From an uncultured Candidatus Saccharibacteria bacterium (GTDB taxonomy: Bacteria > Patescibacteriota > Minisyncoccia > Phycocordibacterales > JAACPR01): 64,000 nucleotides of DNA. The stretch covers positions 344-64,343 of the forward strand of contig CAZDRR010000001.1 in NCBI GenBank assembly GCA_964507955.1, written 5' to 3'. Shown piece by piece: positions 12,871 to 52,879 of this stretch. Position 1 is the stretch's first letter. Each line of letters opens with the position of its first letter. The notes beneath the pieces are model-generated. The model was not told where the DNA came from and made no database searches. It worked only from the letters and a program-made list of their open reading frames with translations. The position numbers were made by a program, and so were the translations under genes.

Positions 12871-12884
12871 TACCTTATAACTAG

Positions 12885-35302: not shown

Positions 35303-36060
35303 TTCAATTCGGACAACATCTTTGTTAAAATTCTACATTCTTTTGTTGGAATGTCTTTAAACGATTTCCATTGAGAGCAATCATCATTACGATATTTATT
35401 CTCTTTCCAAAGAGTTCTCAACCATTGGATAAATTGATCGAAATTTAAATTCTTTTCTTCTGCTGTTTTTTCAAGAAGCGCCCAAGGTTTTAAAATAACA
35501 TTTTCTTCTTCCGTTTGAGAACTTTCTGATCCAGAAGAACGCATGATTTCATCTGCCCCGACAATATGGATATTTAAAAAATTGCGCACGGCACGGACAA
35601 AAGCCCTATTACAAGCCATGGTTTCTAAAAATTTTTGACCAAAATCATCTGTATTTTTTACAGATGCATTTGCGCAATCCGAAAATTTTACAACATAAGG
35701 TGTTTCATAATTCGGAATCCATGTAATTGTGCAGGTAGCTATAGCATTTTCTGTATTACCAGAAATATTATATGAGACTTCGGAAAATCCCCTTAATTTA
35801 GCTAACTCTTTAATACCCCCGAGCATTATTAATAATTGTTTGTCTTTTAAGCCTTCAATAGAAGAAGGAATTGGCTTTTGTCTGTTTTCAAACCATTCCT
35901 TATTCACATAAAGGAATTCTGGTTTGATCATTTCTCTCCAATTAATTGATCCATCTTCATTAAAGACGTATGCAACATTAGGATAAAGTCCTGTAGAAGT
36001 ATTACGAGAATATTTTTGAACAGCTTGCTCTACAAGCGTTGCGGGGATTTCTTCACTCAT
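35299..36060 (-). CDS. hypothetical protein
   Basis: 253 aa; terminal gene of minus-strand operon; start overlaps the stop of the upstream gene (CATCAT at 36053..36060). Confidence 0.4.
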   Translation of the reverse strand: MSEEIPATLVEQAVQKYSRNTSTGLYPNVAYVFNEDGSINWREMIKPEFLYVNKEWFENRQKPIPSSIEGLKDKQLLIMLGGIKELAKLRGFSEVSYNISGNTENAIATCTITWIPNYETPYVVKFSDCANASVKNTDDFGQKFLETMACNRAFVRAVRNFLNIHIVGADEIMRSSGSESSQTEEENVILKPWALLEKTAEEKNLNFDQFIQWLRTLWKENKYRNDDCSQWKSFKDIPTKECRILTKMLSELN

Positions 36061-37186
36061 GATTGTTACTATAAATATACATCCAGTCTAAGTCAAGTAA
36101 AAACAAGTCCATAGACTTGTAAACTGCGAATATATTTGGATAAACGTCCGCGCCACAAACAATTTTTTTATTAGATATAATCGAAATATCTTCGTAAGAA
36201 GCGTTATTGATTTTTTGTCGATTGTCTTCTATCGTTTTTTCAACATTAAAATTAATAATGGCGTTATTGAAAAACTTAGCTCTTTCGTTTTTTAAATTTT
36301 CCTCGTTTGTGCAAATTAAATTAACTGGAATACCAAGTAATTTTAAATCTTCCACAAATTTCTTATCGAAAGATCCTGAAACATAATTGACACATAGAAG
36401 ATTTTTAACGAAAGGAAAGTTTAAGTTAAATGGTTGCGCCGTAGTTACTTCTCCAGTATTGCGCGAAAGAATATCTACCATTATTTTATGAGTTTCCATA
36501 TCACAAAATAAATCAAGTCTAATATTGACATTTTTTAAAACTAATGGACAGGGTAAAGATGGAATAATATCTATACATTTATCTTTATATCTCAAACCAG
36601 CATAAATCGTTTTAAATGGAATGTTATTGTTAAATCCAAGCATCTCAAGAATAGTTTGAGCAATAATTTCGGGATTTATTTTGTTGATTTTTTTAGGGAA
36701 TTCATTTAATATAAAAGATGGATTTTCATCTTTTTCGCGAGGAGTTTCGATAAGAAATTGTTTCTTTTTATCTCCCCAATATGGTGCCGAACAATTCGCA
36801 AAAGATTCCCCGAAAATAGCCGTAATTGGTTTGTTATAAACACTCGCAATTTGTGCTGCCAAAGAATCTACTCCAACAAATGCCATGCTGTTCTTAATGA
36901 CATTTGATGTTTGTCTAAAATTTAACTTGCCTCTTAAATCCAAATCACATTGCACGGATGGGTCTTTTAGAGAACCAATTTGAACAACCTTTATATTTTC
37001 ACGTTGCAAAAATGGCAAACAGAGATTCAAAACTAAATTCCAATGGTCATAATCTCTTAAATTGTTTTTTTTAGAAGCGTAAAAACAAATATATTTATCA
37101 AAAACTATAGGATAGTAATGTTCCAAAATTTCTATGGAAGAAATTGGAACGCCTGTCGATAATGCATATCTCTCAATTAAATGCAT
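36053..37186 (-). CDS. GT9 (heptosyltransferase-like) C-terminal domain protein with about 230-aa extension
   Basis: N-terminal 150 aa carry GT9 C-domain motifs (YASKKNNLRDYDHW ~ GASxxxKRWP; GVDSLAAQIASVYNKPITAIFG ~ GNDSGPMHLAAALGxPxVALFG); no GT9 N-domain present in this ORF. Confidence 0.55.
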   Translation of the reverse strand: MHLIERYALSTGVPISSIEILEHYYPIVFDKYICFYASKKNNLRDYDHWNLVLNLCLPFLQRENIKVVQIGSLKDPSVQCDLDLRGKLNFRQTSNVIKNSMAFVGVDSLAAQIASVYNKPITAIFGESFANCSAPYWGDKKKQFLIETPREKDENPSFILNEFPKKINKINPEIIAQTILEMLGFNNNIPFKTIYAGLRYKDKCIDIIPSLPCPLVLKNVNIRLDLFCDMETHKIMVDILSRNTGEVTTAQPFNLNFPFVKNLLCVNYVSGSFDKKFVEDLKLLGIPVNLICTNEENLKNERAKFFNNAIINFNVEKTIEDNRQKINNASYEDISIISNKKIVCGADVYPNIFAVYKSMDLFLLDLDWMYIYSNNHE

Positions 37187-37190
37187 GTTC

Positions 37191-38897
37191 TTATTCTTTA
37201 ATGTTCAAAGTAATGATATCGTTGCCATGATGCAAGTAATCCAAATGTTTTTGAGTCCCAATATGAGGCAGAAAACAAATTTCGAAATATCCTTTATGAG
37301 ATCCTTGTCCTTCCATCATGAATAAATTTTCCATATGAGGATGAAAATCAAGCACTTTATAGATGAACCTATTGCCTAAAAGAATTTCTTTGAATTGGGG
37401 CTTTGTAGCGAAATAAATGTCTTTATCTGGATAAGCCTTTTTGATTGATGGCAGCAAAGCTGTAGATAAAAAGACATCTTCTTCGGATTCTGGCATCACG
37501 AACAAAATACGATCTTTCCTTTCTTTATCTAAAAATGAATCAAAAGGAATCACTTTTAATTCTTCGGAAGGCTTGGCATTTTTGAAACTTATTATGGGTT
37601 GCTTTACTGTTTCGAGAATTTTTCCTTTTAGATTCTCAACAATTTTCTCAACGCTAAATTCTGCTTCTATCCATTTCTTGCCATTATCAACTAATTCTTG
37701 TTTTCTCTCTTGATCCAATCCATAAACATACAACAATGTATTACATATCGAATTAGCGTCGGTAGAAGCTTTGATGAATTGGGATTGGGGTTCTCTATAT
37801 TCATGCCATTTTAAAGGAAGTCCCCCTTGATGCTCATAGCACGAATCTGTGCCACAAGAGTATTCTGTAACCAATGTAATTAAGCCTGCGGCTTTAGCTT
37901 CTTGAATTGGTAATTCTTGCCCTCCAGAAGTAAATGGATGACAATATACGTCCATACAATTATAAACTTCATTTAATTGTTCCTCGGTTAATCCAGCAAT
38001 CGCTGTTTTTGTTTTAAAGGTTTTGGCCGAATTGCAGAATGGGCAATTAATTTCCGCACCTTCAAAATTTTTAATAGAATATCGTCCGCAAGAACTACAA
38101 CGATAAGTTGCTAAAACATCATGCGGACTAATCTTCTTTTCTTTTAAATATCGAACGATATCCCAGCCAGCTTGATTATCTCCCCAATCCGTATGCAAAA
38201 TTAGTTTAGCTTCTGGAACTATTTGTTTGAATAATTTAAATCCATCTAGGAGATTTGGAACAGATTTTCTCAATTGATTTTTGAAAACAAAACCTATGAC
38301 AAAATTTTTATCAAGGCCGTGTCTTTGGCGAATTTCGCGTCTATTTTCAAGAGGTTTAAAATGATTTAAATCAATAGCCCCATGTATTGTTGAAATATTA
38401 TGAATGCCAAATTTTTTCATTTCCTGTGTGGCGAAATCAGCCCAAACAAGAAATTTGTCGCAAGACTTCGCCATAATCATAGATTCTTCCATCAATGGAA
38501 GGCTGTCTAACGTTGTCCAAATGATTTTATGGGTAGTGTTCCACCAAGGCTTTGCAACGAAGCCAGAGAAGGCCCAAATGTCTTCAATGCCTACGTAAAC
38601 ATCTGGTTTTACAATATCAATAATCTTGTCTATTTCGTAATAGCCATATGATGCAGCGCGGTTTTTAAACGGATCGTTTGCAATTGAAGCCAATACTTCT
38701 GGATTCTCTGTCATAGTTCCATAACAAGGCCAAGGAGTCTTAACATCCCTACCAAATGGAACGCCATTCGCTGCTTCATAAACCTCAATATCTGGATCAT
38801 TATGCAATGCGAGAAGAACATTCTTCATGTTCTTCCCGAATCCAGTAACCATTCTACTGTAATTAGAATGAAAAAGAACTTTGATTTTCTTGTTCAT
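37191..38897 (-). CDS. GT4-type glycosyltransferase with inserted zinc ribbon and C-terminal GT9 N-domain-like module
   Basis: GT-B C-domain E-x7-E region GGQELPIQEAKAAGLITL; inserted CSSCGRYS...CPFCNS; C-terminal 150 aa (ILFVMPESEEDVFLSTALLPSIKKAYPDKDIYF...) resemble the N-terminal domain of WaaC/WaaF-type GT9 enzymes. Confidence 0.6.
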   Translation of the reverse strand: MNKKIKVLFHSNYSRMVTGFGKNMKNVLLALHNDPDIEVYEAANGVPFGRDVKTPWPCYGTMTENPEVLASIANDPFKNRAASYGYYEIDKIIDIVKPDVYVGIEDIWAFSGFVAKPWWNTTHKIIWTTLDSLPLMEESMIMAKSCDKFLVWADFATQEMKKFGIHNISTIHGAIDLNHFKPLENRREIRQRHGLDKNFVIGFVFKNQLRKSVPNLLDGFKLFKQIVPEAKLILHTDWGDNQAGWDIVRYLKEKKISPHDVLATYRCSSCGRYSIKNFEGAEINCPFCNSAKTFKTKTAIAGLTEEQLNEVYNCMDVYCHPFTSGGQELPIQEAKAAGLITLVTEYSCGTDSCYEHQGGLPLKWHEYREPQSQFIKASTDANSICNTLLYVYGLDQERKQELVDNGKKWIEAEFSVEKIVENLKGKILETVKQPIISFKNAKPSEELKVIPFDSFLDKERKDRILFVMPESEEDVFLSTALLPSIKKAYPDKDIYFATKPQFKEILLGNRFIYKVLDFHPHMENLFMMEGQGSHKGYFEICFLPHIGTQKHLDYLHHGNDIITLNIKE

Positions 38898-39523
38898 TAA
38901 AATGGAACATCGTCGTCAACATCATTGTCATCTACTTCTTCCGATTGGGAATTTTTGGAATTGGAAGATTGATTGTCTAAACCGAAATCATCATCATTTT
39001 GATTCTTATCGTTTTGTTTATTGTCAGGACGGAATTCTTCCTTCGCAGCATATAAAACTTGGGCAATAAATTCTTTTAAAAGAACGGCTAAAACTTCCGT
39101 TTCTCCAGCTTCTAAAGCAATCTTGAATGTCAATGCGGAATTTTTAACAATAGAAAGGCCAAAAGCATCAGAATCATAAGTCAAATTCTCATCTTTACCT
39201 TTGATTGTTCTTGGCTTATCCCAAGGAGTAAATTTGATAGAAGTTGAATCGTCGTTATTCTTATGGAAGGTAGCATAAGGAATTCTCGTCTTTAGAGATG
39301 ACAGTAATTCTCCAGCTTCATTCGCATTTAACTTGATTGTAATTGATTTTTTAGGGTTCTTAGCATTTTCTTTAAAAGACCCTGTTTTTGAGTTATCATT
39401 CCAACTGCTTTGGAGGACTGCGGAAACGAATAAAGCTACTCCTCCATCTCGGAGAGTGCCGATTTCAAAGCTCATTGCGCAACCATTATTTTTTGAGTTC
39501 GGTTTATAAAGAGTGTATTTCAT
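38897..39523 (-). CDS. ssDNA-binding protein candidate with bacterial-SSB-like acidic tail (DDDVPF)
   Basis: C-terminus ...EEVDDNDVDDDVPF closely mimics the E. coli SSB tail tip DDDIPF; long acidic/Asn-Gln linker before it; start placed at MKYTLYKP (alternatives 39475 or 39640). Confidence 0.45.
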   Translation of the reverse strand: MKYTLYKPNSKNNGCAMSFEIGTLRDGGVALFVSAVLQSSWNDNSKTGSFKENAKNPKKSITIKLNANEAGELLSSLKTRIPYATFHKNNDDSTSIKFTPWDKPRTIKGKDENLTYDSDAFGLSIVKNSALTFKIALEAGETEVLAVLLKEFIAQVLYAAKEEFRPDNKQNDKNQNDDDFGLDNQSSNSKNSQSEEVDDNDVDDDVPF

Positions 39524-39562
39524 TTTGAAATAAGTGTAATTTCTTCTGACATATTGTAAAAG

Positions 39563-41116
39563 ATGTATTCCAAAATTCAACCCCAACAAATCAATTTGCA
39601 TACATTTTCCAGCCCAAGCGGACATTTTACGATTTCGCAAGGTTCCGATTATGTTTATCTTGATTTAAACAAGTATTTAACTGGAGATTTTAATTTTACA
39701 GGAAATATTTTAATTAATGGATCTCCTATTTTTACATCGGATACCACTAATGTCGTTGATCATTCTGATAATTTAATTTTATTGGGATCAAATAATACAG
39801 CCAATGGAACAGGAAACGTCATTGTAAATTCTATTTCAACAACAATTCATGGAACGAATAATCTTGTTTTAAATTCTTTTCCTGCTGGAACTTTTGACCA
39901 AAGCGTTACAAAATGCACAATTTTAGCAGGAACTTATGCTGGATTTAATAATAGTATTTCTGGATCAACTATTTTAAAAGATCAATCCAATTCAACATCT
40001 TGCACCGCTACAAAAAATAATGCTCTTTATGTTTCTTTTGTTGGAGGGAGTTATTTTGATGGCAATGTTAATTTTAGTAATTCTGTTTCTCTGGAAGATT
40101 TTGCCGATTTAAAATTAGCATCACAAAGTTCGGGCCTCTTTTCTGGAGATATTAATGTTTTAGGTAATATCTATTGGAAAAATACTTTAATTCCTTCTAT
40201 TAGTGATGTTACAGGAATTAGCGGAAGCTTACAGACTCAAATTACCAATTCTGGAGCTTTGTTAACAAGCGATTTAGACGCCTTAGAATTTCTTGTTACT
40301 GGAACATCTACAAATCTAAGTGGCAAAAGTGTTTTTACAACAGGCGATCAAACAATTTCTGGAATTAAAACTTTTTATAATGATATCCTTTTATCTTCTT
40401 CTTCTTTAATTGGAGATACGGGAATAAGTAACTTTATTCAATTTGCGGATAAAAACGTCGTTAATTCTTCTGGTGATTTGCTCAAAATAGTTTCAAAAGA
40501 CTCTTGCGCTATTTTAATTGATTCTAATGATACTAAGTCTGGAGATTCAAATTTCTTTAATGGAGATACTTCTTTCAATAATTCTTTTGTTATTGGTAAG
40601 GGATTTGATGATTTGGATGGGGCAGATCCTTTAATGGCAGTAGATTACTATGGCAATTTAGTTGTTACTGGAAATTTAATCTTAAAAAATAGTGCGGGAT
40701 TAGTGCCTACTGGAGATTCTGACGCTATAGGAACTCATGGAGCTTTTGTTCAAAAAAATCAATATCTTTACATTAAAAATAACAATACTTGGATGAGATT
40801 CTCTGGAATCAGCACTTGGGATAATTCTAATCCAGATATCATCGCAGCGGGTTATCAAATTGTGCCAAATAATGGAACTGCCAATAGTCATGGATTTTTC
40901 CGCTCAAATGGCACTACACCAAGTTCTTCTGGACTTGATCTTGCCAGCGGCATATATACGGCAACCGTTATTTCTCCACCAGTATTAATTGCATGGTCCT
41001 ACACAACCTCAGATGCGCAATGGCCAAGTTATGCGGAGTGTTCAATAAGCACTCATACTATCAGAACAACTTATGATTTGGAAAATGAAGCCTTTTATGT
41101 AAAGGTTATTTCTTAA
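39563..41116 (+). CDS. beta-helix tail fibre/tailspike-like protein
   Basis: 517 aa; Asn/Gly/Ser/Thr-rich short repeats typical of right-handed beta-helix receptor-binding or depolymerase proteins; lone + gene; start overlaps divergent neighbour, so one start is miscalled. Confidence 0.45.
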   Translation: MYSKIQPQQINLHTFSSPSGHFTISQGSDYVYLDLNKYLTGDFNFTGNILINGSPIFTSDTTNVVDHSDNLILLGSNNTANGTGNVIVNSISTTIHGTNNLVLNSFPAGTFDQSVTKCTILAGTYAGFNNSISGSTILKDQSNSTSCTATKNNALYVSFVGGSYFDGNVNFSNSVSLEDFADLKLASQSSGLFSGDINVLGNIYWKNTLIPSISDVTGISGSLQTQITNSGALLTSDLDALEFLVTGTSTNLSGKSVFTTGDQTISGIKTFYNDILLSSSSLIGDTGISNFIQFADKNVVNSSGDLLKIVSKDSCAILIDSNDTKSGDSNFFNGDTSFNNSFVIGKGFDDLDGADPLMAVDYYGNLVVTGNLILKNSAGLVPTGDSDAIGTHGAFVQKNQYLYIKNNNTWMRFSGISTWDNSNPDIIAAGYQIVPNNGTANSHGFFRSNGTTPSSSGLDLASGIYTATVISPPVLIAWSYTTSDAQWPSYAECSISTHTIRTTYDLENEAFYVKVIS

Positions 41117-41490
41117 AATTCAATAATTGCAGATTTTGTCTCAATTTTCTTTGGCGTATCTTTTAAGTGCTTTTTACCCTTATTTTTCTTCTTATAATCG
41201 TCAAAGAATTTACGTTTAACAGGATCTTCTCCAGTTGCAGATGCCCGTTTTTCAGAAAGTTCGGCAGATAAATCCATCATATCTCCAACAGTTCCTTTTT
41301 TGGAACCTGTTTTATTTACGAAATCTTTTGCAGAATGAGGATCAATAGTTGTATCTATTGAGGCATTTGGAATAGTAAAAATTCTTTTCCACGCAATACC
41401 ATCTTGGTAATACTCATGTTTGTCATTCATGCCTTGGAGAATTTCTTTGATTTCTCCAGTTTCTTCATTCTGGTAAAGGTAAAGTGGCAT
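41113..41490 (-). CDS. hypothetical basic protein
   Basis: 125 aa; Lys-rich C-terminus. Confidence 0.4.
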   Translation of the reverse strand: MPLYLYQNEETGEIKEILQGMNDKHEYYQDGIAWKRIFTIPNASIDTTIDPHSAKDFVNKTGSKKGTVGDMMDLSAELSEKRASATGEDPVKRKFFDDYKKKNKGKKHLKDTPKKIETKSAIIEF

Positions 41491-42569
41491 TATAGCATCT
41501 TTGTTAAAATTTGATCAACTGTATTTTTATAAGTAAATTGTTTCCCCATTATCAATCCGTTTGTATTGACGGTTTTGGCTTTTAATACCGCTCTTTCCAT
41601 ACCATCAATCAAAGAATCTTCGCTAAGAAGAAAGTAATTGCCCTGATTAAAAGGAAGACCTTTTCTGAAAAAGAAATTATCGTAGCACGGTTGTTCTCCG
41701 ACAGGCTCAACAAGAATTGAATTATCTTCTGTAGCCCAATCTTTATGAGAAGAACAATTAGAAACTACCGACCATTTTCCTAAAGCCGTCGTATTAAATG
41801 CCCCCATATTCCAACCCTCTCCATTCGAAAAACCAGATAAATCAATATCTATAGCGTTCATCAATTCAAGAACTTCGGAATTTGTATCGAGCGATGGAAG
41901 AAAATTGATATTTGTCCACTCTTTATCCCCAAGGGTTTCTTGTAAAATTTGTTTGTATTGTTCTGGAGTAAAAAAGGGATTATTGACAAGGCAAGTTAAT
42001 AAATATTTTGGGTCGTTGCCATATTTTTTCAACCAAGTTTGGATAATTTGTCGAGTATTTTTCCTGCGTTCAAATTTTCCAATTAATCCAAAATGTATAA
42101 CGTCATCGTTAAACTTTTTATCAATTACATGAAAGTCTTCGTCAAATCCTAAAGGAACATGGGAAACATTATCGCAGCCAGCATTTTTAAAGATATTTGC
42201 GGCAATGGAACTTGAAAAGAAAACATGTTCTTGACTTTTCACTAAAGCGATTTCTTCTTGGGTTGGAGAAGAAACTTCGTAATATGTATAAAGAAATTGT
42301 TTTGGAGCAATTCTGTTTTCAGAACCATTGATATGCCAATTTTTAAGAACAGGATACTTTTTGTCCAACGTTTTGAATCTATTCTGTCCAGATTCCTTAA
42401 TCCAATCAATGAATTCTTTTGGAGCTTTGTCGAAGGCTTGGAAATTAGCCTGATCGCCTACGGGGAAAAGGGAAACTTCGGCATTTCTTTTCCAAAGTTC
42501 CTTTAAAAAATTCATTGATACATTCCCTAAACTCAAGGAATTGATGGGGCCATTAAAGTGAAGTTTCAT
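41490..42569 (-). CDS. GT-B glycosyltransferase (GT1/GT4-like)
   Basis: HFGLIGKFERRKN and SGFSNGEGWNMGAFNTTALGKWSVVSN resemble GT-B C-domain sugar-donor binding motifs. Confidence 0.55.
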   Translation of the reverse strand: MKLHFNGPINSLSLGNVSMNFLKELWKRNAEVSLFPVGDQANFQAFDKAPKEFIDWIKESGQNRFKTLDKKYPVLKNWHINGSENRIAPKQFLYTYYEVSSPTQEEIALVKSQEHVFFSSSIAANIFKNAGCDNVSHVPLGFDEDFHVIDKKFNDDVIHFGLIGKFERRKNTRQIIQTWLKKYGNDPKYLLTCLVNNPFFTPEQYKQILQETLGDKEWTNINFLPSLDTNSEVLELMNAIDIDLSGFSNGEGWNMGAFNTTALGKWSVVSNCSSHKDWATEDNSILVEPVGEQPCYDNFFFRKGLPFNQGNYFLLSEDSLIDGMERAVLKAKTVNTNGLIMGKQFTYKNTVDQILTKML

Positions 42570-44513: not shown

Positions 44514-44541
44514 TTGACAAGAAAAATTTCCTTGTTATAAT
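44514..44541 (+). promoter_or_regulatory. consensus sigma-70-type promoter TTGACA-16-TATAAT directed toward the RNR gene
   Basis: TTGACA at 44514-44519 and TATAAT at 44536-44541; about 290 nt upstream of the RNR start. Confidence 0.55.
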
Positions 44542-44835: not shown

Positions 44836-46839
44836 ATGATTGACGTGCGCGATTTACGACAAAATGAGGTTAGAGAGTATCATGAAAAATATTGCATTTC
44901 CGAACTACTTCCAGAAGATTTTTTAAACAAATACAAGAATAAACAGCCTAATTGGGGCTTTAATGGGTTGGGCTATATTGTTTACAAAAGGACTTACGCT
45001 AGAGAAATTGTCAAGGGATTGACGGAGGAATGGTGGGAAACAGTTGCTCGTTGCGTTAACGGTGCGCAAAAAATTGGTGCGAAATATTCTGTTGAAGAAG
45101 CCCAAAGATTATATGATCTAGTCTTCAATTTAAAATGTAATTTTGCAGGACGAATGCTTTGGCAGTTGAATACGTCAACTGTTGAAAGATTCGGACTTGC
45201 CAGTTTGCTCAATTGCTGGTATTGCGCGATGAGGGACATTGATGACTTTTGTTTTGTATTTGAACATTTGATGTTAGGTGGGGGAGTGGGTTTTTCGGTC
45301 AAAAGGGAAGACGTTCATGAACTGCCTAGAGTTAAAAAAGGAGTAAGGATTACTCATGAAAAAACCAAAGATGCTGATTTTATTGTCCCTGATTCTCGAC
45401 AAGGATGGGTTGAATTGTTAAGAAAAACCATGCAATCATTTTTTGTCACGGGTAAATCTTTTTCATATTCAACAATTCTTGTGCGTGGCGCTGGAGAAAA
45501 AATTGCTGGATTCGGCGGCACTGCGAGCGGCCCACAAATCTTGATAGACGGAATCCAACAAATCGCGAATATTATCGCGAAAAGAGAAGGTAAAAAATTG
45601 CGTTCAATAGACGTTTTAGATATTAACAATATTATTGGCGATATTGTTGTGGCGGGCAATGTCAGGAGAAGTGCGGAAATTGCAATTGGAGATGCGGATG
45701 ATTATTTATATTTAAGGGCTAAAAATTGGAGTAATGGCAATATTCCAAACTGGAGGAGTAAATCGAACAATAGTATTGAAGCAGATTCATTTGAACACAT
45801 CAGCGATGAACTTTGGGAAAATGGTTATGTTCTTGATCCAAAGACAGGATTAGCAAAAGGCGAAGCTTACGGCTTCATCAATTTACAACTTTGTAAACAA
45901 TATGGGCGCTTAGGGGAAGAAAGAAAGGAAAACTGCGAAGGAGTTAATCCATGTGCGGAAATCACTCTTGCGGATGGGGAAGCATGTAATTTGGCAGAAC
46001 TTTATTTAAACAATATTGATTCTAAAGAAGAATTAATTGAATGTGCGAAACTACTTTATAAAACCCAAAAAGCGGTTTGGAATCTACCAGCACTTTACGA
46101 GAAAACAGAAAAAATTGTTTCCAAGAACAGGCGTATTGGGCTTGGAGTAACAGGTGTATGCCAATCTCTTGATAAACTTGATTGGTTGGACGAATGTTAC
46201 GTTACTCTTAGAGAATATGATAAAGAATGGAGTGCGCAAAATGGACTTCCAGAGAGCATCAAATTAACAACAGTTAAGCCAAGCGGCACCCTTTCCTTAT
46301 TGGCTGGATCAACAGCAGGAGGACATGCGGGCTATTCTCGTTGGATGATCAGAAGAGTAAGAATGGCTTCAACAGACCCTCTTATCAAGTTGTGCAGAGA
46401 AGCTGGATATAAAACCGAATACCTGTTACGCTTTGATGGAACAGAAGATTATTCTACAACTGTTGTAGAATTTCCTTGTGAGTTTTCTCCAGAAACCGTA
46501 TTGGCGAAAGATTTATCGGCTGTGGACCAAATGAATTTGGTGAAAAAGTTACAGACAATTTGGGCTGACAATTCCGTATCGGTGACGATTTATTATCAAC
46601 CAGAAGAATTGGATTCCATCAAAGATTGGATGAAGGAAAATTATAAAAATAGCACGAAAACACTAAGCTTTTTAATGCATAACAAACACGGATTTAAACA
46701 AGCTCCATTAGAAGAAATTTCCGAAGAAACATATCGCAAGATGATTAAAAAAGTTAAACCAATTGAACAAATTTTTGATATTGGTTCTACTCTCATTGAA
46801 GGTTTGGAATGCGAAGGAGGAGCATGTCCATTGAGGTAA
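44836..46839 (+). CDS. ribonucleotide reductase, class II-like (B12-dependent type), monomeric size
   Basis: 667 aa; active-site VNPCAEITL...EACNLAELYLNN matching RNR NPC[GA]E...CNL.S motifs; C-terminal CEGGAC redox pair; no NrdB-like partner in window. Confidence 0.6.
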   Translation: MIDVRDLRQNEVREYHEKYCISELLPEDFLNKYKNKQPNWGFNGLGYIVYKRTYAREIVKGLTEEWWETVARCVNGAQKIGAKYSVEEAQRLYDLVFNLKCNFAGRMLWQLNTSTVERFGLASLLNCWYCAMRDIDDFCFVFEHLMLGGGVGFSVKREDVHELPRVKKGVRITHEKTKDADFIVPDSRQGWVELLRKTMQSFFVTGKSFSYSTILVRGAGEKIAGFGGTASGPQILIDGIQQIANIIAKREGKKLRSIDVLDINNIIGDIVVAGNVRRSAEIAIGDADDYLYLRAKNWSNGNIPNWRSKSNNSIEADSFEHISDELWENGYVLDPKTGLAKGEAYGFINLQLCKQYGRLGEERKENCEGVNPCAEITLADGEACNLAELYLNNIDSKEELIECAKLLYKTQKAVWNLPALYEKTEKIVSKNRRIGLGVTGVCQSLDKLDWLDECYVTLREYDKEWSAQNGLPESIKLTTVKPSGTLSLLAGSTAGGHAGYSRWMIRRVRMASTDPLIKLCREAGYKTEYLLRFDGTEDYSTTVVEFPCEFSPETVLAKDLSAVDQMNLVKKLQTIWADNSVSVTIYYQPEELDSIKDWMKENYKNSTKTLSFLMHNKHGFKQAPLEEISEETYRKMIKKVKPIEQIFDIGSTLIEGLECEGGACPLR

Positions 46840-46997
46840 CAAAGTGTATCTGTCACAATATCTCTTTTCAGGAGATTCTCAAAAAGAATAAACCCCTTCC
46901 TCTTTTACAGGAGGCGGGGGTTTGTGCTAATAAATGTAAATTATGCGTTCCCTTTTTGGAAAAAATAATTTTGAAAAAAGAAGAGAAAAATGAATAA
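46824..46997 (+). CDS. small Bfd-like [2Fe-2S]-binding domain protein (putative)
   Basis: 57 aa from in-frame ATG 46824; CICH...CANKCKLC gives the C-x-C...C-x2-C pattern of BFD-like domains; overlaps the RNR 3' end. Confidence 0.35.
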   Translation: MSIEVTKCICHNISFQEILKKNKPLPLLQEAGVCANKCKLCVPFLEKIILKKEEKNE

Positions 46998-47003
46998 TCT
47001 GAT

Positions 47004-47852
47004 GTGGACGTATTATTCATTTCAGATTTTAATTTAGAACATAACTCTGGCGGTGCGCAGGTAAGCAATGACGCTATTATTCGTGCAGGACGAGAACGAG
47101 GATTGTCTATTACAGAATTTAATCATGATACAAGTTCTTTAAAATTAATGTATCGGTATGATTTGTTGATTAGTTCCAATTTGGAAGTTTTGAGTCATCG
47201 TTCTGATTATATATTTGATAGGATTATTAATCACCCAAACCATATACGATTAGAACACGATTCCTGTAGTTATCTGCCTGCGGATAAACGTCGTAAACTG
47301 TTTTCTTCGACAAAGAAAAATTTCTTTTTATCGCAGTTTCATCTGGATTTCTTTAAAGAAGCATATGGTGATTATTTCGAGAATGTAGAAATAAACTTTG
47401 ATCCTATTGATACTAAAATTTTTTATCCAAGTTCCAATAAAAAGCGAAAGTATGATATTGTTTATTGCGGATTCTTGCATGAGCTAAAAGGAGCATATAA
47501 TCTCATTCATACTGCGGTTTTCAATCCCCAAAGGAAATTTGATGTTTTTGGATGGAGCGACAATGAGAGATTGATAAAGGAGTTGCAACAATATCCAAAT
47601 ATAGAATTACATCAACCCGTCCCTTTAAATGAAGTCGGAGAGATTTATAGAAATGCAAAATTTATTTTCCATGATCCAGTTGTTAACGAACCATTTTGTA
47701 GAATGGTTGGTGAGGCACTGATTTGTGGTTGCGAATTGATGGGCAACGGAGATAAAATTGGCAGTTATCAGGAATTTTACAAATTAGGGAGTGACGAATT
47801 CCGCGCACAAACAGAGAAAGCACAACACACGTTTTGGGATAAAATTTTATGA
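47004..47852 (+). CDS. GT-B glycosyltransferase (GT4-like)
   Basis: C-domain EPFCRMVGEALICGCELMGNGD matches the GT4 E-x7-E donor-binding region; GTG start per track. Confidence 0.6.
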   Translation: MDVLFISDFNLEHNSGGAQVSNDAIIRAGRERGLSITEFNHDTSSLKLMYRYDLLISSNLEVLSHRSDYIFDRIINHPNHIRLEHDSCSYLPADKRRKLFSSTKKNFFLSQFHLDFFKEAYGDYFENVEINFDPIDTKIFYPSSNKKRKYDIVYCGFLHELKGAYNLIHTAVFNPQRKFDVFGWSDNERLIKELQQYPNIELHQPVPLNEVGEIYRNAKFIFHDPVVNEPFCRMVGEALICGCELMGNGDKIGSYQEFYKLGSDEFRAQTEKAQHTFWDKIL

Positions 47853-48580
47853 AATCAGTTTCCGCAATTATTAATTGTTTTCAACGCCCACACGCTTTAA
47901 GAAGTCAATTTGAAGCGATAGAATCTCAATCTATCAAGCCGAAAGAGATTATGATTTGGCAAAATGCCCCAATGAATGGAGCGCAATTTGATTATTCTTT
48001 TTTAAATAAATCAATTATTAGCTTAAATAATTATAATTATGGAGTATGGGCTCGATTCGCATTTGCTTTAAATTCTCATTCTGATTATATTTGTATATTT
48101 GATGACGATACTATTCCAAACGAAAATTGGTTTGAAAATTGTTTAGAACAAATTGAACAAAATGGGAATGGTCTTTATGGAACTATTGGAGTAACATTTA
48201 ACGATTTAGATTATCGTTCTTATATTCGTCATGGTTGGGCGAATCCAAATAATAAGGTTGAGCAAGTAGATATTGTAGGACATTCTTGGTTCTTCCATAG
48301 AGATTTATTATCTGCATTTTGGAGAGAAACAGATTTGCCACTTTCCTATTTGTGTGGTGAAGACATGCATTTTTCATATTCAATTCAGAAATATCTTGGA
48401 TTAAATACTTTTGTGCCTCCTCATCCGATAGAAGATTTGTCTTTATGGGGTAGCCGACCCCAATCAGCGATGGAATTAGGCGTTGATAATAATGCTATTT
48501 CTGTGAATTTTCATTCACAAATTTTTGGAGAATCTTTAAAGCATTATCATAAAAAAGGCTTTAAATTATTAAATTTATGA
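47849..48580 (+). CDS. GT-A fold glycosyltransferase (GT2-like)
   Basis: N-terminal Rossmann-like SAIINCFQRP, DxD-type motif FDDDTI; 243 aa. Confidence 0.6.
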   Translation: MKSVSAIINCFQRPHALRSQFEAIESQSIKPKEIMIWQNAPMNGAQFDYSFLNKSIISLNNYNYGVWARFAFALNSHSDYICIFDDDTIPNENWFENCLEQIEQNGNGLYGTIGVTFNDLDYRSYIRHGWANPNNKVEQVDIVGHSWFFHRDLLSAFWRETDLPLSYLCGEDMHFSYSIQKYLGLNTFVPPHPIEDLSLWGSRPQSAMELGVDNNAISVNFHSQIFGESLKHYHKKGFKLLNL

Positions 48581-49584
48581 AAAAAATACTTGTAATATAT
48601 GGGACTCGCCCAGAATATTTAAAAGTTAAAAATTTCTTGAAAAAAAATGACGTTTTTGACATAAAAAGTTTACATATTAAACAACACTCTAATATCATTA
48701 ATTTTGGCGATCCCGATTATTTAATAGAAATTGAAAATAAAAATATAGATAGGTTAAACAATATTTTTAGTGAAATTTTTTTAAAATTACCAGAAATTAT
48801 TAAAGACTTTGATTATATTGTTATTCAGGGAGATACGGCATCTGTTATGGCTTCTGCTGTTTGCGCTTTTAATTTGAAGAAAAAAATTATTTATATTGAA
48901 TCAGGATTAAGAACTTGGGATTTGGATAATCCTTTTCCAGAAGAGGGATATAGACAAATGGTTGCGCGTATTTCATATATAAATTTTTGTCCGACAGAAC
49001 GTTCTAATTTAAATTTAATTAAAGAAAATATTAACCAAAATTGTTTTGCTGTAGGCAATACGTCTTTAGATAATTTATTGAATTTAAAAGAAAAATGCTC
49101 TTATCAGGACAAGGTTTTAATTACTTTACATAGAAATGAAAATTTAAATATTTTATCAGAATGGTTGTCCATAATAGATCAATTTGCAAGAGAACATCCA
49201 GAATTAATGTTTATTTTTCCAGCGCATTTAAATCCTATTGTGCAAACAGCGGCGTCTAAAACAAAATATTTAAAAATAATTAAACCTTTAGAACACGAAG
49301 ATCTTTTAGATATTTTAAAAGATGCAAAATTCGTTATTACTGATTCTGGAGGAATCCAAGAAGAGGCTTGTTTTTTAAATAAAAAAATTATTGTATGTCG
49401 TAAAACAACAGAACGTCCAGAAGGCATTTCGACTGGACATATAAAAATTGCAGAAGATCCTTCTAAATTGAAAAATCTATTAGAAGAAGTAAATACGAAT
49501 TTTATAATAGATGGATCATGCCCATATGGAGACGGGCAATCTACCCAGCGAATTTTACGAATATTAGCAAATGAAAGACTTTAA
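48577..49584 (+). CDS. UDP-N-acetylglucosamine 2-epimerase family enzyme (WecB/NeuC/CapG-like)
   Basis: Signature motifs GTRPE (N-terminus), VIQGDT, DSGGIQEE, TERPE. Confidence 0.8.
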   Translation: MKKILVIYGTRPEYLKVKNFLKKNDVFDIKSLHIKQHSNIINFGDPDYLIEIENKNIDRLNNIFSEIFLKLPEIIKDFDYIVIQGDTASVMASAVCAFNLKKKIIYIESGLRTWDLDNPFPEEGYRQMVARISYINFCPTERSNLNLIKENINQNCFAVGNTSLDNLLNLKEKCSYQDKVLITLHRNENLNILSEWLSIIDQFAREHPELMFIFPAHLNPIVQTAASKTKYLKIIKPLEHEDLLDILKDAKFVITDSGGIQEEACFLNKKIIVCRKTTERPEGISTGHIKIAEDPSKLKNLLEEVNTNFIIDGSCPYGDGQSTQRILRILANERL

Positions 49585-50263
49585 ACAAGAATTATTAATA
49601 ATGCATGATAGACTTATAAAAGGAGAGTCGTTTGCATTTTCTAAATATGCGGATGGGGAATGGGCCGCGATGTTAAATTTACCTTTAGATAATAGAGAAT
49701 TTAAAAACGAAAATTCTTTCGAAACTTCTCGCAAAGAGTTAATTGAATCTTTTAGATTTAAACACCCAAACTATTTTGTTGGAATTTCTTGTGAGTGTTG
49801 TCAAGGAGAAAACCATTTTCGAATGAAAGAATTTTCAACACAACCTATTGAAAATTTAACTTATGCGAATTTATTTGTTAATAGCAATTATCCGATTTAT
49901 AAACAATTATTTCTTCCAGAATATGAAAAAAGAGATGTTCATTTAGTGTGCAATAAATTATCGAAAATAGAAAATTTACCTTTTGTGCCAGAAGAAACAT
50001 ATTTTGTTGGATATAATGCATGGGTAGAAGACCACGATCTTATTAAAAAAATACAAGATAAGAATTTATCGGATAAATTATTTTTATTTTGTTGCGGGCC
50101 ATTCGGTAATTTATTAGCCCACCAACTATTTTCGTCAAATCAAAAAAATATATATTTAGACATTGGATCAACATTAAATCCGTGGTTACAATCAGAAGGA
50201 TTTAAAAGAGATTATTATTCTAATGGATTCTACGCTGGTCGAAAATGTTTTTGGAGGGAATAA
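49571..50263 (+). CDS. hypothetical protein, possible GT-D/DUF1792-like glycosyltransferase
   Basis: 230 aa; N-terminal FSKYADGEWAAM (DxE-type metal motif); weak. Confidence 0.3.
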   Translation: MKDFKQELLIMHDRLIKGESFAFSKYADGEWAAMLNLPLDNREFKNENSFETSRKELIESFRFKHPNYFVGISCECCQGENHFRMKEFSTQPIENLTYANLFVNSNYPIYKQLFLPEYEKRDVHLVCNKLSKIENLPFVPEETYFVGYNAWVEDHDLIKKIQDKNLSDKLFLFCCGPFGNLLAHQLFSSNQKNIYLDIGSTLNPWLQSEGFKRDYYSNGFYAGRKCFWRE

Positions 50264-50265
50264 CA

Positions 50266-51117
50266 ATGATACAAAAAAATAAACGATACTTAATTACTGG
50301 AGGAACTGGATTTTTGGGAGAGGCTTTAATTGCTCGACTACAAAAATTCGGATGCACAATAAGAATTTTGGCAAGAAATGAGGGAAAGCTAATAGCTTTA
50401 AAACAAAAATATCCAAATTTAGAAATTCATACAGGAGATATTTCAGATCCTTTTGAAGTAAAACAAGCAATGAAGGATGTCGATGGAGTTTTCCATCTAG
50501 CAGCTTCAAAACACGTTGGATTAGCAGAAACATTTGTTAGAGAATGCGTTAAGTCTAATACTATAGGATCATTAAATATATTAGAAAATTCATTGAATCA
50601 AAAATTAGATTTTGTTATCGGAATTTCGACAGATAAAGCCGCCCAAGTAGCAGGGGTTTATGGAGCTTCAAAACTTTTAATGGAGCGTTTATTTAAACAG
50701 TTTGAGGAATTAAATCCTCTTTGTAAATATAGAATTGTTCGATATGGTAACGTTTTATATTCTACAGGTTCGGTTTTGTGTAAATGGAAAGAATTAATTC
50801 AATCAGGACAACCATGTGCAGTTTCAGATTTAAATGCTACTAGATTTTATTGGACAGTAGAACAGGCAATTGAGTTAATTTTTGAATGTTTATCCAAAGC
50901 AGAAAATGCTTCCCCTTTTGTTCCTCAAATGAAGTCTATTAGAATCAAAGATTTATTAGAAGCAATGTATGAAAAATATGGCAATGGATTTCAGTTAAAT
51001 CCAATTGTTTATGGATTACAACAAGGGGAAAATTTACACGAAAGGATTTTGGAGGATGGACCTTATTCCAACGAAGTTCCCTTATATAGCAAGAAAGAAA
51101 TTTTAGAACTGATATGA
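50266..51117 (+). CDS. UDP-GlcNAc 4,6-dehydratase, PseB/CapE/FlaA1-like SDR
   Basis: TGGTGFLG NAD motif; ISTDKAAQVAGVYGASK (YxxxK); RYGNVLYSTGSVLCKWKELIQSGQPCAVSDLNATRF closely parallels PseB RYGNVMASRGSVIPLFIEQIKANQPLTITDPNMTRF; start moved to ATG 50266 with GGAGGG SD. Confidence 0.8.
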   Translation: MIQKNKRYLITGGTGFLGEALIARLQKFGCTIRILARNEGKLIALKQKYPNLEIHTGDISDPFEVKQAMKDVDGVFHLAASKHVGLAETFVRECVKSNTIGSLNILENSLNQKLDFVIGISTDKAAQVAGVYGASKLLMERLFKQFEELNPLCKYRIVRYGNVLYSTGSVLCKWKELIQSGQPCAVSDLNATRFYWTVEQAIELIFECLSKAENASPFVPQMKSIRIKDLLEAMYEKYGNGFQLNPIVYGLQQGENLHERILEDGPYSNEVPLYSKKEILELI

Positions 51118-51788
51118 AAGAACTAACTTTATTAATTGGTAGTTGCGATAACTATGCTTCTTTATGGCCTATTTGCGCAGATTTAATTCAAAAATATTGG
51201 GAGATTGATTGCGATAAAATTATAGTTGCAGAAAATTATTCACAATCATGTCCACAAGAATTTAAGTTAATTAATGCTGGGTGCAGAACTTGGACGGAAA
51301 GAATGTTATATGCATTAGATTCTGTTAAAACTCCGTATGTTTTTTTTATATTAGAAGATTATTTTTTAAGCGAAAGAGTTTCTAAGGAAATGATTGATCA
51401 ATTTTTATTTTTTCTGAAAATTCACGAAGCTAATAAAATAGCTTTAACAACAATTCCAGAAGGATTTTATAAAACATCGAAATTTTATGAAAATTTATAT
51501 GATAATATTTATAAAATGGATGACGATAGCGATTACTTAACAAGTGTTCAACCTGCAATTTGGAAGACTTCTTTTTTAAAAGAATTATTACAACAAGATA
51601 ATTGGAATCCATGGGAATTTGAAATTATTGGTAGCGCAAGGATAAAAGGGAAGGATAATAAAATTTTTATCAAGAAAAAAAATGACCCAATTTATTTTAA
51701 TGCAGTTAGAAAAGGAGGTTATTTTTCAGAAGGTTATTTTGAATTTATAGAGAAAGAATTGAATAAAGAAGTTGACAAGAATCATTGA
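51114..51788 (+). CDS. hypothetical protein in sugar-nucleotide operon
   Basis: 224-aa coupled ORF; no recognisable motif. Confidence 0.4.
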   Translation: MKELTLLIGSCDNYASLWPICADLIQKYWEIDCDKIIVAENYSQSCPQEFKLINAGCRTWTERMLYALDSVKTPYVFFILEDYFLSERVSKEMIDQFLFFLKIHEANKIALTTIPEGFYKTSKFYENLYDNIYKMDDDSDYLTSVQPAIWKTSFLKELLQQDNWNPWEFEIIGSARIKGKDNKIFIKKKNDPIYFNAVRKGGYFSEGYFEFIEKELNKEVDKNH

Positions 51789-52879
51789 ATACGCATAATA
51801 TGAACGCGAATATGAAAAAAGTGCTAATAACAGGAGTCACAGGAATGGACGGGAGCCTTATGGCAGATTATTTATTAAAGCATACAGATAATTTTATTGT
51901 TGGAGGTATTCGTAGATTGAGTGTGCCGAATCATAAAAATATAGAACATCTCATTGGGCATCCTAGATTTAAACTTATTGATTTAGATATTACAGATGCG
52001 ATTAATGTTGCGTTAGTGATTAAAGAAGAACGACCAGATTATTTTATTAATTTTGCGGCGAATTCTTTTGTAGGCAATAGTTGGACGATGCCAGTTAATC
52101 ATTTTACGACGAATTGTTTATCGGTGCTTTATCAATTAGAAGCTATTCGCAAATATGCTCCAAACTGTCATTATTATAATGCAGGCTCTTCTGAGGAGTT
52201 TGGTGATGTTGTAACTGTTCCTCAGTCAGAAAGTCATCCTTTACGCCCACGAAGTCCTTATGGGGCAGCTAAGGCTTCTTCAAGACATCTTGTGAAGGTT
52301 TATAGAGAATCTTATAATCTTTACGCTATTCAGGGTTGGTTATTTAACCACGAAGGAATTCGCAGGGGAGAAGAATTTGTCACCCGCAAAATTACCAAAG
52401 GCGTTGCAAGAATTAAACATGCCATTGAAAATAAACTTCCATTTGAACCTCTTGAACTCGGTAATCTTGATTCAACAAGGGATTGGAGCGATGCAGAAGA
52501 TTTTGTAGATGGTATATGGAAAATGCTCAATCAAGAATTTCCAAAAGAATATGTTCTATCGTCTAATGAGACCCATTCTATTAAAGAATTTGTAGAATTA
52601 GCTTTTTTATCGGCTGGGATTCATGGTGTTTGGGTTGGAGAAAAATTAGATACATTATATCTTCTTCCAAATGCTGACGCGGAATATTGTGAATTTGCAT
52701 CAATTAAATTAGTAAAAATTAATGAAAAATTTTATCGCCCAGCAGAAGTAGAAATTCTTTATGGGGATTCAAGTAAAGCACGGACAGAATTAAATTGGCA
52801 ACCAAAAATTTCTTTTAAAAACCTTGTAAAAAAAATGGTTGAAAACGATATAAAAGAATATGCCAAAACCCATTCGTAA
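51785..52879 (+). CDS. gmd: GDP-mannose 4,6-dehydratase
   Basis: ITGVTGMDGSLMADYLL, SPYGAAK, LFNHEGIRRGEEFVTRKIT, YFRPAEVE and the C-terminus align closely with E. coli Gmd. Confidence 0.92.
   Translation: MNTHNMNANMKKVLITGVTGMDGSLMADYLLKHTDNFIVGGIRRLSVPNHKNIEHLIGHPRFKLIDLDITDAINVALVIKEERPDYFINFAANSFVGNSWTMPVNHFTTNCLSVLYQLEAIRKYAPNCHYYNAGSSEEFGDVVTVPQSESHPLRPRSPYGAAKASSRHLVKVYRESYNLYAIQGWLFNHEGIRRGEEFVTRKITKGVARIKHAIENKLPFEPLELGNLDSTRDWSDAEDFVDGIWKMLNQEFPKEYVLSSNETHSIKEFVELAFLSAGIHGVWVGEKLDTLYLLPNADAEYCEFASIKLVKINEKFYRPAEVEILYGDSSKARTELNWQPKISFKNLVKKMVENDIKEYAKTHS

Follow-up and report, generated by a model that had tools for sequence, protein, structure and literature searches.

The window analysed here is a 64,000-nucleotide stretch of contig CAZDRR010000001.1, which represents 64 of about 139 kb of a phage genome; statements below on gene content cover these 64 kb. 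The window (mean GC about 0.35) is a tailed-phage fragment with genes for PhoH, a large terminase subunit, a 2,073-residue tape-measure protein, and plus-strand tail genes up to position 35302. From position 53203 a replication module follows, comprising DnaB, primase, a PD-(D/E)XK nuclease, PHP, an exonuclease, the DNA polymerase III alpha subunit (PolIII-alpha), and a ClpB-like ATPase. Between the two modules lie genes for nucleotide-sugar enzymes and glycosyltransferases (GTs), which are the subject of this report. An earlier reading made from the sequence alone (the sequence-only reading) had placed these genes in a phage, which the terminase, tape-measure protein, DnaB, primase, and PolIII-alpha on their two sides bear out, and its coordinates and strands agree with the list of open reading frames (ORFs). 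The glycan genes are as follows:

36053..37186, minus strand: GT9-like C-terminal (nucleotide-sugar-binding) half plus about 190 residues without assigned function (PF01075, TIGR02201)
37191..38897, minus strand: GT4-like GT-B transferase with a zinc ribbon insert, the last approximately 110 residues being the N-terminal GT9-like piece (phrog_2170)
41490..42569, minus strand: family-conserved core GT-B glycosyltransferase, GT4-like (predicted structure)
47004..47852, plus strand: probable short GT-B-type transferase, cassette gene 1 (sub-threshold PF00534)
47849..48580, plus strand: GT2-family (GT-A) glycosyltransferase, cassette gene 2 (PF00535)
48577..49584, plus strand: non-hydrolysing UDP-GlcNAc 2-epimerase of the WecB/MnaA type, cassette gene 3 (TIGR00236, PF02350, PDB)
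49571..50263, plus strand: GT-D-like (DUF1792-type) glycosyltransferase, cassette gene 4 (homologues match PF08759)
50266..51117, plus strand: PseB/CapE/FnlA-class UDP-GlcNAc 4,6-dehydratase, cassette gene 5 (PF02719, PDB, motifs)
51114..51788, plus strand: GT-A-fold glycosyltransferase, cassette gene 6 (predicted structure; missing from the earlier list)
51785..52879, plus strand: GDP-mannose 4,6-dehydratase, Gmd (PF16363, solved GMDs, motifs)

Interleaved with these genes, as the sequence-only reading had it, are a sigma factor, a dNMP kinase, a dUTPase, a class II ribonucleotide reductase (RNR), and a single-stranded DNA-binding protein (SSB). For the comparisons below, 64 related loci were fetched with the RNR as anchor and with 10-kb flanks, and four closer relatives were fetched with the core GT as anchor; individual loci carry L numbers.

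The Gmd matches PF16363 with 338 bits (E = 9e-101, cut-off 27), and its eleven best solved matches in the PDB are all GMDs, most of them aligned near full length (E = 3e-74 to 6e-64). Its score against TIGR01472 is 309.5 bits, under the equivalog cut-off of 415. The protein has the GVTGMDG cofactor motif (GxxGxxG) at residue 17, the SSEE motif, and the catalytic residues Y159GAAK163. The longest Gmd ORF opens with a TTG codon that overlaps the stop codon of the preceding gene (51785-51800); the ATG codons of residues 6 and 10 could serve as the start instead, and the similarity to solved GMDs begins at approximately residue 10.

The second dehydratase (50266-51117) matches PF02719 (Polysacc_synt_2) with E = 6e-60 and, among solved enzymes, CapE (3e-41), FlaA1/PseB (2e-37), FnlA (4e-36), and Megavirus Mg534 (4tqg, 8e-27), as expected from its earlier label of PseB/CapE-like. 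Its TDK (ISTDKA) and VYGASK motifs, the latter with Y132, align to CapE, FlaA1, and FnlA; the Tyr-x-x-x-Lys motif is shared with PseB and Mg534, whereas CapE and FnlA have a Met. The enzyme scores below the equivalog cut-offs (TIGR03589 PseB, 173 versus 408 bits; FnlA, 134 versus 730 bits). It has 283-290 residues, with a C-terminus about 40 residues shorter than in PseB/FnlA, and the 283-residue gene call is found in independent assemblies. The dehydratase is probably inverting, and its predicted product is UDP-2-acetamido-2,6-dideoxy-hexos-4-ulose.

The third enzyme had been described as a WecB/NeuC/CapG-like 2-epimerase. It matches TIGR00236 (wecB) with 223.3 bits over residues 3-333, above the cut-off of 210.15, and PF02350 with E = 6e-66. 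The NeuC model yields only 57 bits (cut-off 236), and CapG only 1e-20 compared with 8e-49 for solved WecB/MnaA enzymes. Because the WecB cut-off is passed and the NeuC and CapG scores are far weaker, the 2-epimerase assignment stands and we classify the enzyme by its sequence as WecB type, neither NeuC nor CapG/FnlC type, with UDP-ManNAc as the predicted product. The closest cellular WecB relative in 185,579 species genomes is at most 37% identical, and phage copies are 57-60% identical; a scan of genome contigs with the WecB-like protein returned only 31-37% matches, in unrelated metagenome-assembled genomes. Since they are this far from cellular homologues, the cassette enzymes are not recent host copies.

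Cassette genes 1, 2, 4, and 6 encode transferase-like proteins. The GT-A enzyme at 47849-48580 is confirmed as a GT2 member by PF00535 (36.2 bits, cut-off 23.3) and an FDDDT motif, and its copies in L087 and L119 are 56-57% identical. The protein at 47004-47852 keeps its GT-B label as probable, the support being a sub-threshold match to PF00534 (GT1; 24.4 bits, below the cut-off of 26.4, E = 2e-5); copies, 38-43% identical, occur only in L119, L138, and L141. The possible GT-D enzyme (49571-50263) is suggested by its homologues: the protein itself has 14.2 bits against PF08759 (cut-off 27), and 31 of 33 homologues match this family (best E = 1e-7). D28-G-E30 and Cys74/76/77/226 are invariant among the homologues; the protein has 729 metagenomic homologues, no homologue in 50,697 deposited phage records, and no PDB match by sequence or profile search. 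The metal-binding role of such a DxE motif comes from the dGT1 structure, and GT-D enzymes (DUF1792/dGT1) are known in protein O-glycan synthesis. The last gene of the cassette (51114-51788) had been overlooked. It has no match in Pfam, NCBIfam, PHROGs, or PDB sequence searches; its predicted structure (pLDDT 94.6) has a GT-A transferase fold, with an invariant Asp in an (E/D)DY motif, and we regard it, on this model, as a further GT-A-fold transferase.

The minus-strand transferases are of a different kind. The core GT (41490-42569) has no Pfam match, and its predicted structure (pLDDT 92.5) shows a two-Rossmann GT-B fold closest to GT4 enzymes, in agreement with the earlier GT-B call. Its structural neighbours are mostly viral transferases from chloroviruses, giant viruses, and archaeal viruses; T4 alpha-glucosyltransferase ranks only 36th. 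The closest solved structure is chlorovirus B736L, which bound GDP-mannose best of the nucleotides tested (PMC9614988). More than 1,457 metagenomic homologues of the core GT were found, Tara Oceans data included, and the best 120 are 58-71% identical. The 568-residue transferase (37191-38897) matches the glycosyltransferase family phrog_2170 over residues 5-425 (E = 5e-22), with sub-threshold PF00534/PF13692 matches, and has the predicted zinc ribbon at residues 266-287 (CSSC...CPFC, that is, CxxC...CxxC). It was rejected as a close paralogue of the core GT: hhalign shows similarity of the sugar-nucleotide loop alone.

The sequence-only reading had proposed a GT9-like enzyme split across 37191-38897 and 36053-37186, and both halves are recognisable. 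The 36053-37186 protein matches PF01075 (22.7 bits, cut-off 22), and its residues 83-144 align to model positions 244-304 of TIGR02201 (E = 7e-7); it is 33-49% identical in the closer relatives L153 and L157-L159. In L122, L125, and L147, residues 463-567 of the 568-residue protein correspond to a free-standing ORF of 109 residues, and the first 143 residues of the 377-residue protein match an adjoining 188-residue ORF. In a relative, the 109-residue ORF corresponds to the first 65 positions of four heptosyltransferase models (E = 0.002-0.02). The PF01075 match does not reach this N-terminal piece, which only the full-length NCBIfam heptosyltransferase models cover. Concatenation of the two halves raised the TIGR02201 score from 28.5 to 35.9 bits and gave nothing meaningful against the PDB. 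The junction in the window reads TAA-gaac-ATG without a slippery site, its spacing differs in a relative, and the two-ORF break is common to the window and L122, L125, and L147. A frameshift or pseudogene was ruled out, given the same break in relatives and the lack of a slippery site, and sequence comparison identifies the pair as a genuine two-polypeptide GT-B enzyme. We call it GT9-like and not a heptosyltransferase because all scores are far below the heptosyltransferase equivalog cut-offs.

These genes had been taken for one island; instead, the locus consists of a family-conserved transferase set and a hypervariable, swappable cassette downstream of the RNR. Comparison with the relatives revealed that (i) Gmd lies beside the RNR in 45 of 64 RNR-anchored loci and is about 60% identical; (ii) the core GT, its small regulator, the sigma factor, and the dNMP kinase each recur in 23-29 of these 64 loci; (iii) the six genes of 47004-51788 each recur in only 0-6 of them; and (iv) the four closer relatives share the whole minus-strand block (35299-44251, 28-71% identity), including both other transferase genes and the SSB, and have none of the six cassette genes. 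At the cassette position, the closer relatives carry Methyltransf_24 and CAP59-like genes; GT2, FkbM, and Exostosin_GT47 genes; or GT4-like and methyltransferase genes. The genes next to the anchors in these loci fall into 150 clusters, of which GT2 (7), Epimerase (6), RmlD-type short-chain dehydrogenase/reductase (SDR; 6), and FkbM methyltransferase (6) clusters and GT1 variants are the most frequent; NTP-transferases and a carbamoyltransferase are present as well. To our knowledge, such a conserved core with a swappable cassette in a very abundant uncultured phage family has not been described.

Several further exchanges and insertions were seen in the related loci. A DegT/DnrJ-type aminotransferase cluster, dependent on pyridoxal phosphate, has members in 19 relatives and in L122 (17407-18567) lies just upstream of Gmd; it points to a GDP-perosamine- or colitose-type branch, and the window lacks it. 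The RNR itself has been exchanged, because L157 (5204-7877) and L159 (5327-7974) have a class I RNR (R1 and R2) at the position where the window (44836-46839) has a class II (B12-type) enzyme. RNR homologues in L139, L140, and L144 are about 300 residues longer, which could be an intein or another insertion, and an HNH endonuclease cluster counts 23 members in these loci, including a gene at 4193-4804 of L130.

The GC content of the cassette (0.285-0.32) is lower than that of its flanks (about 0.35), as would be expected if host or contaminant DNA had been joined to the phage contig by misassembly. Such an artefact is hardly credible, given that two independent Logan assemblies are 100% identical to window positions 48873-51723 and 49399-51612, that the cassette genes share their strand with the RNR and RecA genes and have overlapping stop and start codons, and that many independent IMG/VR, JGI, and Logan contigs show the same backbone, with a cassette in the same place. 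The greater similarity of WecB to phage copies than to any cellular homologue argues in the same direction.

Megablast of positions 44000-54000 and 6000-30000 against the 50,697 deposited phage records returned no match, and in a tblastn comparison the terminases of deposited Bacillus, Clostridium, and Staphylococcus phages share just about 25% identity with that of the window. In IMG/VR, by contrast, the terminase has 486 relatives with 70-80% identity on contigs of up to 147 kb. Because relatives are plentiful in IMG/VR and metagenomes and lacking among deposited phages, these sequence matches assign the phage to an abundant uncultured aquatic family.

The enzymes encoded in the window catalyse the first committed steps from GDP-mannose and UDP-GlcNAc and are accompanied by about seven transferase-like proteins of four folds. 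Family scans of the window ORFs revealed no 4-keto reductase or further SDR/RmlD-type protein, and no aminotransferase, N-acetyltransferase, NeuB/PseI synthase, CMP-transferase, or NeuC-type epimerase; neither a CapF/FnlB/Mg535-type 4-reductase nor a CapG/FnlC/WbjD-type epimerase was found beside the dehydratase in the window. The sugar pathways as seen are incomplete, because the two 4-keto products have no reductase or aminotransferase to follow them. For the same reason, the routes to FucNAc, QuiNAc, or a nonulosonate precursor suggested in the sequence-only reading are unsupported, and the WecB type of the epimerase and the lack of a NeuB/PseI synthase and a CMP-transferase speak against them too. 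A lone Gmd may nevertheless suffice for a 6-deoxyhexose donor, by analogy with the Gmd of chlorovirus PBCV-1 (A118R), which alone also carries out the reduction and yields GDP-D-rhamnose.

That both dehydratases stop at 4-keto intermediates, and that Gmd occurs without the cassette genes in compact relatives, is what one would expect if these enzymes served metabolism: a drain on GDP-mannose and UDP-GlcNAc would stop envelope synthesis, or the sugars would go to small molecules, host proteins, or a free polysaccharide. We consider uses of this sort improbable, since the number of transferase-like genes (seven, of four folds), together with the strong conservation of three of them, implies that a glycan is built in order, beyond a mere depletion of pools. 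The sequence-only reading was right in its general conclusion that the virus directs the synthesis of a glycan, with the enzyme identities confirmed in a phage setting, and the phage probably makes its own type-specific glycan.

The possible targets of this glycan are the virion, the host envelope, and DNA. The features that bear on the choice are as follows:

16996..18123, plus strand: conserved tail-module protein with a hypervariable C-terminal extension (gene order)
39563..41116, plus strand: variable Ser/Thr-rich fibre-like protein (weak BppL_N match)
44514..44541, plus strand: extended sigma-70 promoter match, TTGACA-16-TATAAT with TG extension, 12/12

The tail protein (16996-18123) has no Pfam, PHROG, or PDB match. 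Its core is 46-77% identical in about 30 relatives (homologues in L001-L079), and after a conserved FSAQ(I/V)GG motif it ends in a hypervariable low-complexity extension of 11-52 residues rich in G, T, A, N, S, and P. In the window, this extension reads TTTTTAGVFMSGSSTTTFA; that it accepts a glycan is speculative. In most relatives the neighbouring capsid protein (12885-14021), unlike the tail protein, stays conserved up to the final residue.

The fibre-like protein (39563-41116) consists of 24% Ser/Thr and has no PHROG or PDB match; for its earlier label of beta-helix fibre, which stays putative, there is a weak BppL_N match. In the closer relatives it is 28-43% identical or replaced by proteins of 340-380 residues or by a pair of 750 and 571 residues. 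It may accept a glycan or bind the receptor. The gene for this variable fibre lies between two conserved transferase genes that abut the tail module, which is circumstantial support for a virion target. The adjacent SSB ORF (38897-39640, minus strand) has no Pfam or PHROG match and ends in DDNDVDDDVPF, an acidic tip typical of bacterial SSBs. Since its longest form, which begins with TTG, shares about 78 nucleotides with the fibre ORF on the other strand, its true start is probably further downstream.

The promoter match lies in a divergent intergenic region of 585 bp, upstream of the string of RNR, cassette, Gmd, and RecA genes. Because a perfect sigma-70 match stands upstream of the RNR, early transcription by the host polymerase is suggested; the region as a whole has no more promoter-like sites than expected by chance, and a consensus match alone is no evidence of function. 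A 10/12 match on the opposite strand (44285-44258) is located just upstream of the dUTPase gene.

Our preferred reading is that the locus directs cytoplasmic glycosylation of structural proteins of the phage, to which we give a probability of roughly 0.4. The genes would be transcribed early from the host-type promoter, alongside the nucleotide-metabolism and replication genes. Host GDP-mannose would be diverted to GDP-4-keto-6-deoxymannose and then to a 6-deoxyhexose, and host UDP-GlcNAc to UDP-ManNAc and a UDP-2-acetamido-2,6-dideoxyhexose derivative; the missing reductions could be performed by a bifunctional Gmd, as in PBCV-1, by genes beyond the window, or by the host. The transferases would act in two layers: a family-conserved one formed by the core GT-B (41490-42569), the zinc-ribbon GT4-like enzyme (37191-38897), and the two-subunit GT9-like enzyme, with Gmd as usual companion, and a swappable one (47004-51788) formed by the WecB-type epimerase, the PseB-class dehydratase, and four transferases (GT-B-like, GT2, GT-D-like, and GT-A). 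These soluble enzymes would assemble the sugars stepwise in the cytoplasm into a heteroglycan specific to the phage type. The candidate acceptors, made in the same cytoplasm, are the Thr/Ser-rich extension of the tail protein and the Ser/Thr-rich fibre, and the outcome would resemble the virion glycosylation of mycobacteriophages and giant viruses. From this gene content we infer which donor sugars arise after the first enzymatic steps, in what order they are transferred, and what accepts them.

A conserved, phage-encoded acceptor is argued for because the three transferases are strongly conserved, and a virion target is favoured because the fibre gene is flanked by transferase genes, the C-terminus of the tail protein is hypervariable, and the structural neighbours of the core GT are viral. 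Four points weigh on the other side. The glycan genes belong to an apparently early, replication-linked transcription unit, apart from the late structural genes; both 4-keto products stand without a reductase or aminotransferase in the window; the tail protein is taken for the major tail protein from gene order; and undecaprenyl-linked intermediates on the inner side of the membrane can be substrates of soluble transferases too.

The last of these points leads to a close rival, somewhat unlikely, in which the host envelope is remodelled and an LPS (lipopolysaccharide), capsule, or S-layer glycan is altered during infection. Phage-specified sugars would be added to lipid-linked intermediates at the cytoplasmic face and exported by host flippases and ligases, so that superinfection is blocked or progeny are kept from sticking to debris; this is the usual reading of cyanophage "LPS genes" and the interpretation given to comparable cyanomyophage gene sets (PMC9602691). 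None of the island proteins has a membrane segment (19-residue window, mean hydropathy at least 1.6), no multi-pass membrane protein other than the tape-measure protein was found in the rest of the window, and the window ORFs include no Wzx/Wzy/WecA/Gtr-type, flippase, polymerase, ligase, or priming transferase family, all of which favours an acceptor in the cytoplasm. Because soluble transferases act on lipid-linked intermediates, a host-envelope target is compatible with the absent membrane segments; it is less easily reconciled with a window that lacks a flippase, polymerase, ligase, priming phosphoglycosyltransferase, and Gtr-type membrane protein altogether. In favour of this rival, all three types of sugar-nucleotide enzyme (WecB, PseB/CapE-class, and Gmd) are well known from O-antigen and capsule synthesis, and the GT9-like enzyme is similar to the heptosyltransferases of LPS; early expression from a host-type promoter fits host takeover, and the exchange of cassettes is reminiscent of O-antigen loci and could track the host serotype. 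Conservation of the three core transferase genes across very many phages would be unexpected with a hypervariable host glycan as acceptor, and the distance of the cassette enzymes from cellular homologues (WecB at most 37% identical) counts against a host-envelope role as well.

A third target would be the phage DNA, with the transferases glycosylating a hydroxylated base (5-hydroxymethylcytosine, 5hmC; 5-hydroxymethyluracil, 5hmU; or 5-hydroxycytosine, 5hoC) as protection from restriction, and with nucleotide sugars of the phage's own, as the UDP-arabinose of RB69 and DLP3. The gene neighbourhood is what suggests it: the genes for dUTPase, dNMP kinase, sigma factor, and core GT form a conserved series that continues with RNR, Gmd, and RecA, and the compact relatives L103, L107, and L123 have little besides this series. 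Known DNA-modification clusters combine a GT4-like GT-B enzyme with nucleotide kinases and genes for sugar-nucleotide synthesis (PMC13326640), thousands of metaviromic GT clusters act on DNA (bioRxiv 10.1101/2023.12.21.572611), and one RNR-anchored relative (in the range L087-L150) has a gene of the Mom family (DNA adenine modification). The base-modifying enzymes themselves are lacking. The window has no thymidylate-synthase homologue, and tblastn with an E. coli ThyA query revealed none in the 10-kb RNR flanks of the 64 relatives, its sole match being an ordinary ThyA on an unrelated contig (L086); no thymidylate synthase occurs among the ten most widespread clusters of neighbouring genes; and no C5-methyltransferase, TET/5mYOX, or dioxygenase domain is present in the window. 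Such pathways are normally clustered, and GT contigs without ThyS/5mYOX neighbours have been judged less likely to be DNA-modifying (bioRxiv 10.1101/2023.12.21.572611). In addition, the dUTPase is of the ordinary trimeric type and not a MazG-type dCTPase, T4 alpha-glucosyltransferase is a distant structural neighbour of the core GT, and about seven transferases of four folds far exceed the needs of known DNA glycans. We therefore give DNA hypermodification only a small chance.

Returning to the glycosylation of phage structural proteins, one could go further and regard the conserved core transferases, Gmd, and the exchanged cassette as the viral equivalent of an O-antigen locus, which sets a glycan "serotype" on the tail-tube extension and/or the fibres under diversifying selection. 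This extension is a doubtful one, more likely wrong than right; host defences, adsorption specificity, and loss to particles and grazers would be possible drivers of the selection.

The sequence-only reading held that tailed phages rarely encode this much glycan machinery. That claim is overstated: 13 proteins of this sort are known from the Synechococcus cyanomyophage S-SCSM1, among them Gmd, Fcl, three fucosyltransferases, and five further GTs (PMC9602691), so that a toolkit of similar or greater size has already been published for a tailed phage, and 246 records of deposited phages contain Gmd homologues. The best deposited-phage matches to the window Gmd are cyanomyophage proteins (42-44% identity). 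The UDP-GlcNAc branch (WecB and PseB-class) is rare among deposited phages, the PseB-class dehydratase being found in 6 of the 50,697 records, some of them doubtful. The LPS/cell-wall clusters of cyanomyophages (S-SCSM1, S-CAM7, and ACG-2014f) resemble the window in that tailed marine phages carry Gmd, several GTs, and nucleotide-sugar enzymes. They differ from it in three respects: (i) cyanomyophages are T4-like myoviruses, whereas the window phage is siphovirus-like, with its 2,073-residue tape-measure protein and PolIII-alpha; (ii) they carry Fcl (GDP-fucose synthase) and fucosyltransferases, whereas the window has no reductase; and (iii) the window has the UDP-GlcNAc branch and a GT-D-like enzyme.

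Mycobacteriophages Che8 and Corndog encode few transferases and rely on host nucleotide sugars. According to a summary of Freeman et al. 2023 (in PMC12619734), glycans are located on C-terminal extensions of their capsid and tail-tube subunits. Like the window phage, they are of the siphovirus type and have soluble transferases of their own, and the putative counterpart in the window is the hypervariable Thr/Ser-rich C-terminus of the tail protein; no sequence relationship between the two systems was found. In Mimiviridae, clade-specific variable glycan clusters decorate the virions (PMC9614988). Giant viruses share with the window a virus-encoded Gmd and, in Mg534, a PseB-class enzyme with the same Tyr-x-x-x-Lys motif (E = 8e-27). 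By contrast, their hosts are eukaryotic, the Mg535 reductase of Megavirus has no counterpart in the window, and Mg536 is a 2-epimerase of the WbvD/WbjD type whereas the window enzyme is of the WecB/MnaA type.

Phage DNA-glycan clusters (T4 glucosyl-hmC, RB69/DLP3 arabinosyl-5hoC, and metaviromic 5mYOX/ThyS-GT clusters) likewise have a GT4-like GT-B enzyme by nucleotide kinases and nucleotide-sugar genes in replication modules. Their base-hydroxylating enzyme, a ThyA homologue or a methyltransferase with 5mYOX, has no equivalent in the window, nor ThyA in the 10-kb RNR flanks of the relatives. Bacterial O-antigen and capsule loci (S. aureus cap5/8 CapE-F-G, Pseudomonas WbjB-C-D, Gmd-Fcl, and Gmd-Per) have the same enzyme families in a hypervariable low-GC cassette at a fixed position. 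Unlike these loci, the window has no Wzx, Wzy, Wzz, WaaL, ABC transporter, initiating transferase, or CapF/FnlB reductase, all the island proteins are soluble, and the carrier is a virus.

Glycan genes of phages tend to be annotated as "auxiliary metabolic" or "LPS" genes, with no target assigned. The locus described here offers a clean system for the question of the target, since it combines an abundant family, three fixed transferase genes, and a cassette that is exchanged in the manner of serotypes. A glycan on the virion would mean that the glycan coats of tailed phages extend well beyond mycobacteriophages, and would have consequences for how the particles adsorb, how sticky they are, and how long they persist in water; with DNA or the host envelope as the target, the diversity of the cassettes would open up a large range of modifications not explored so far. 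Three further gains from the locus are a GT-A family without sequence-level annotation, a phage clade of GT-D-like enzymes, and a naturally split GT-B enzyme.

Three features outside the glycan region were observed. The replicative polymerase is apparently distributed over three consecutive plus-strand ORFs (58594-62545):

58594-59316, plus strand: PHP domain ORF, part of the apparently split polymerase
59313-59978, plus strand: RNase T-like exonuclease, part of the apparently split polymerase
59975-62545, plus strand: PolIII-alpha core, part of the apparently split polymerase

Directly 3' of it, a ClpB/ClpA-like AAA+ ATPase (Clp_N, AAA, and AAA_lid_9; 62535-64000, plus strand) is cut by the end of the window; such an ATPase is an unusual cargo in a phage replication module. 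The GC content peaks at 0.448, compared with about 0.35 for the window, at positions 12000-14000, which correspond to the putative major capsid gene (12885-14021) and the gene that precedes it.

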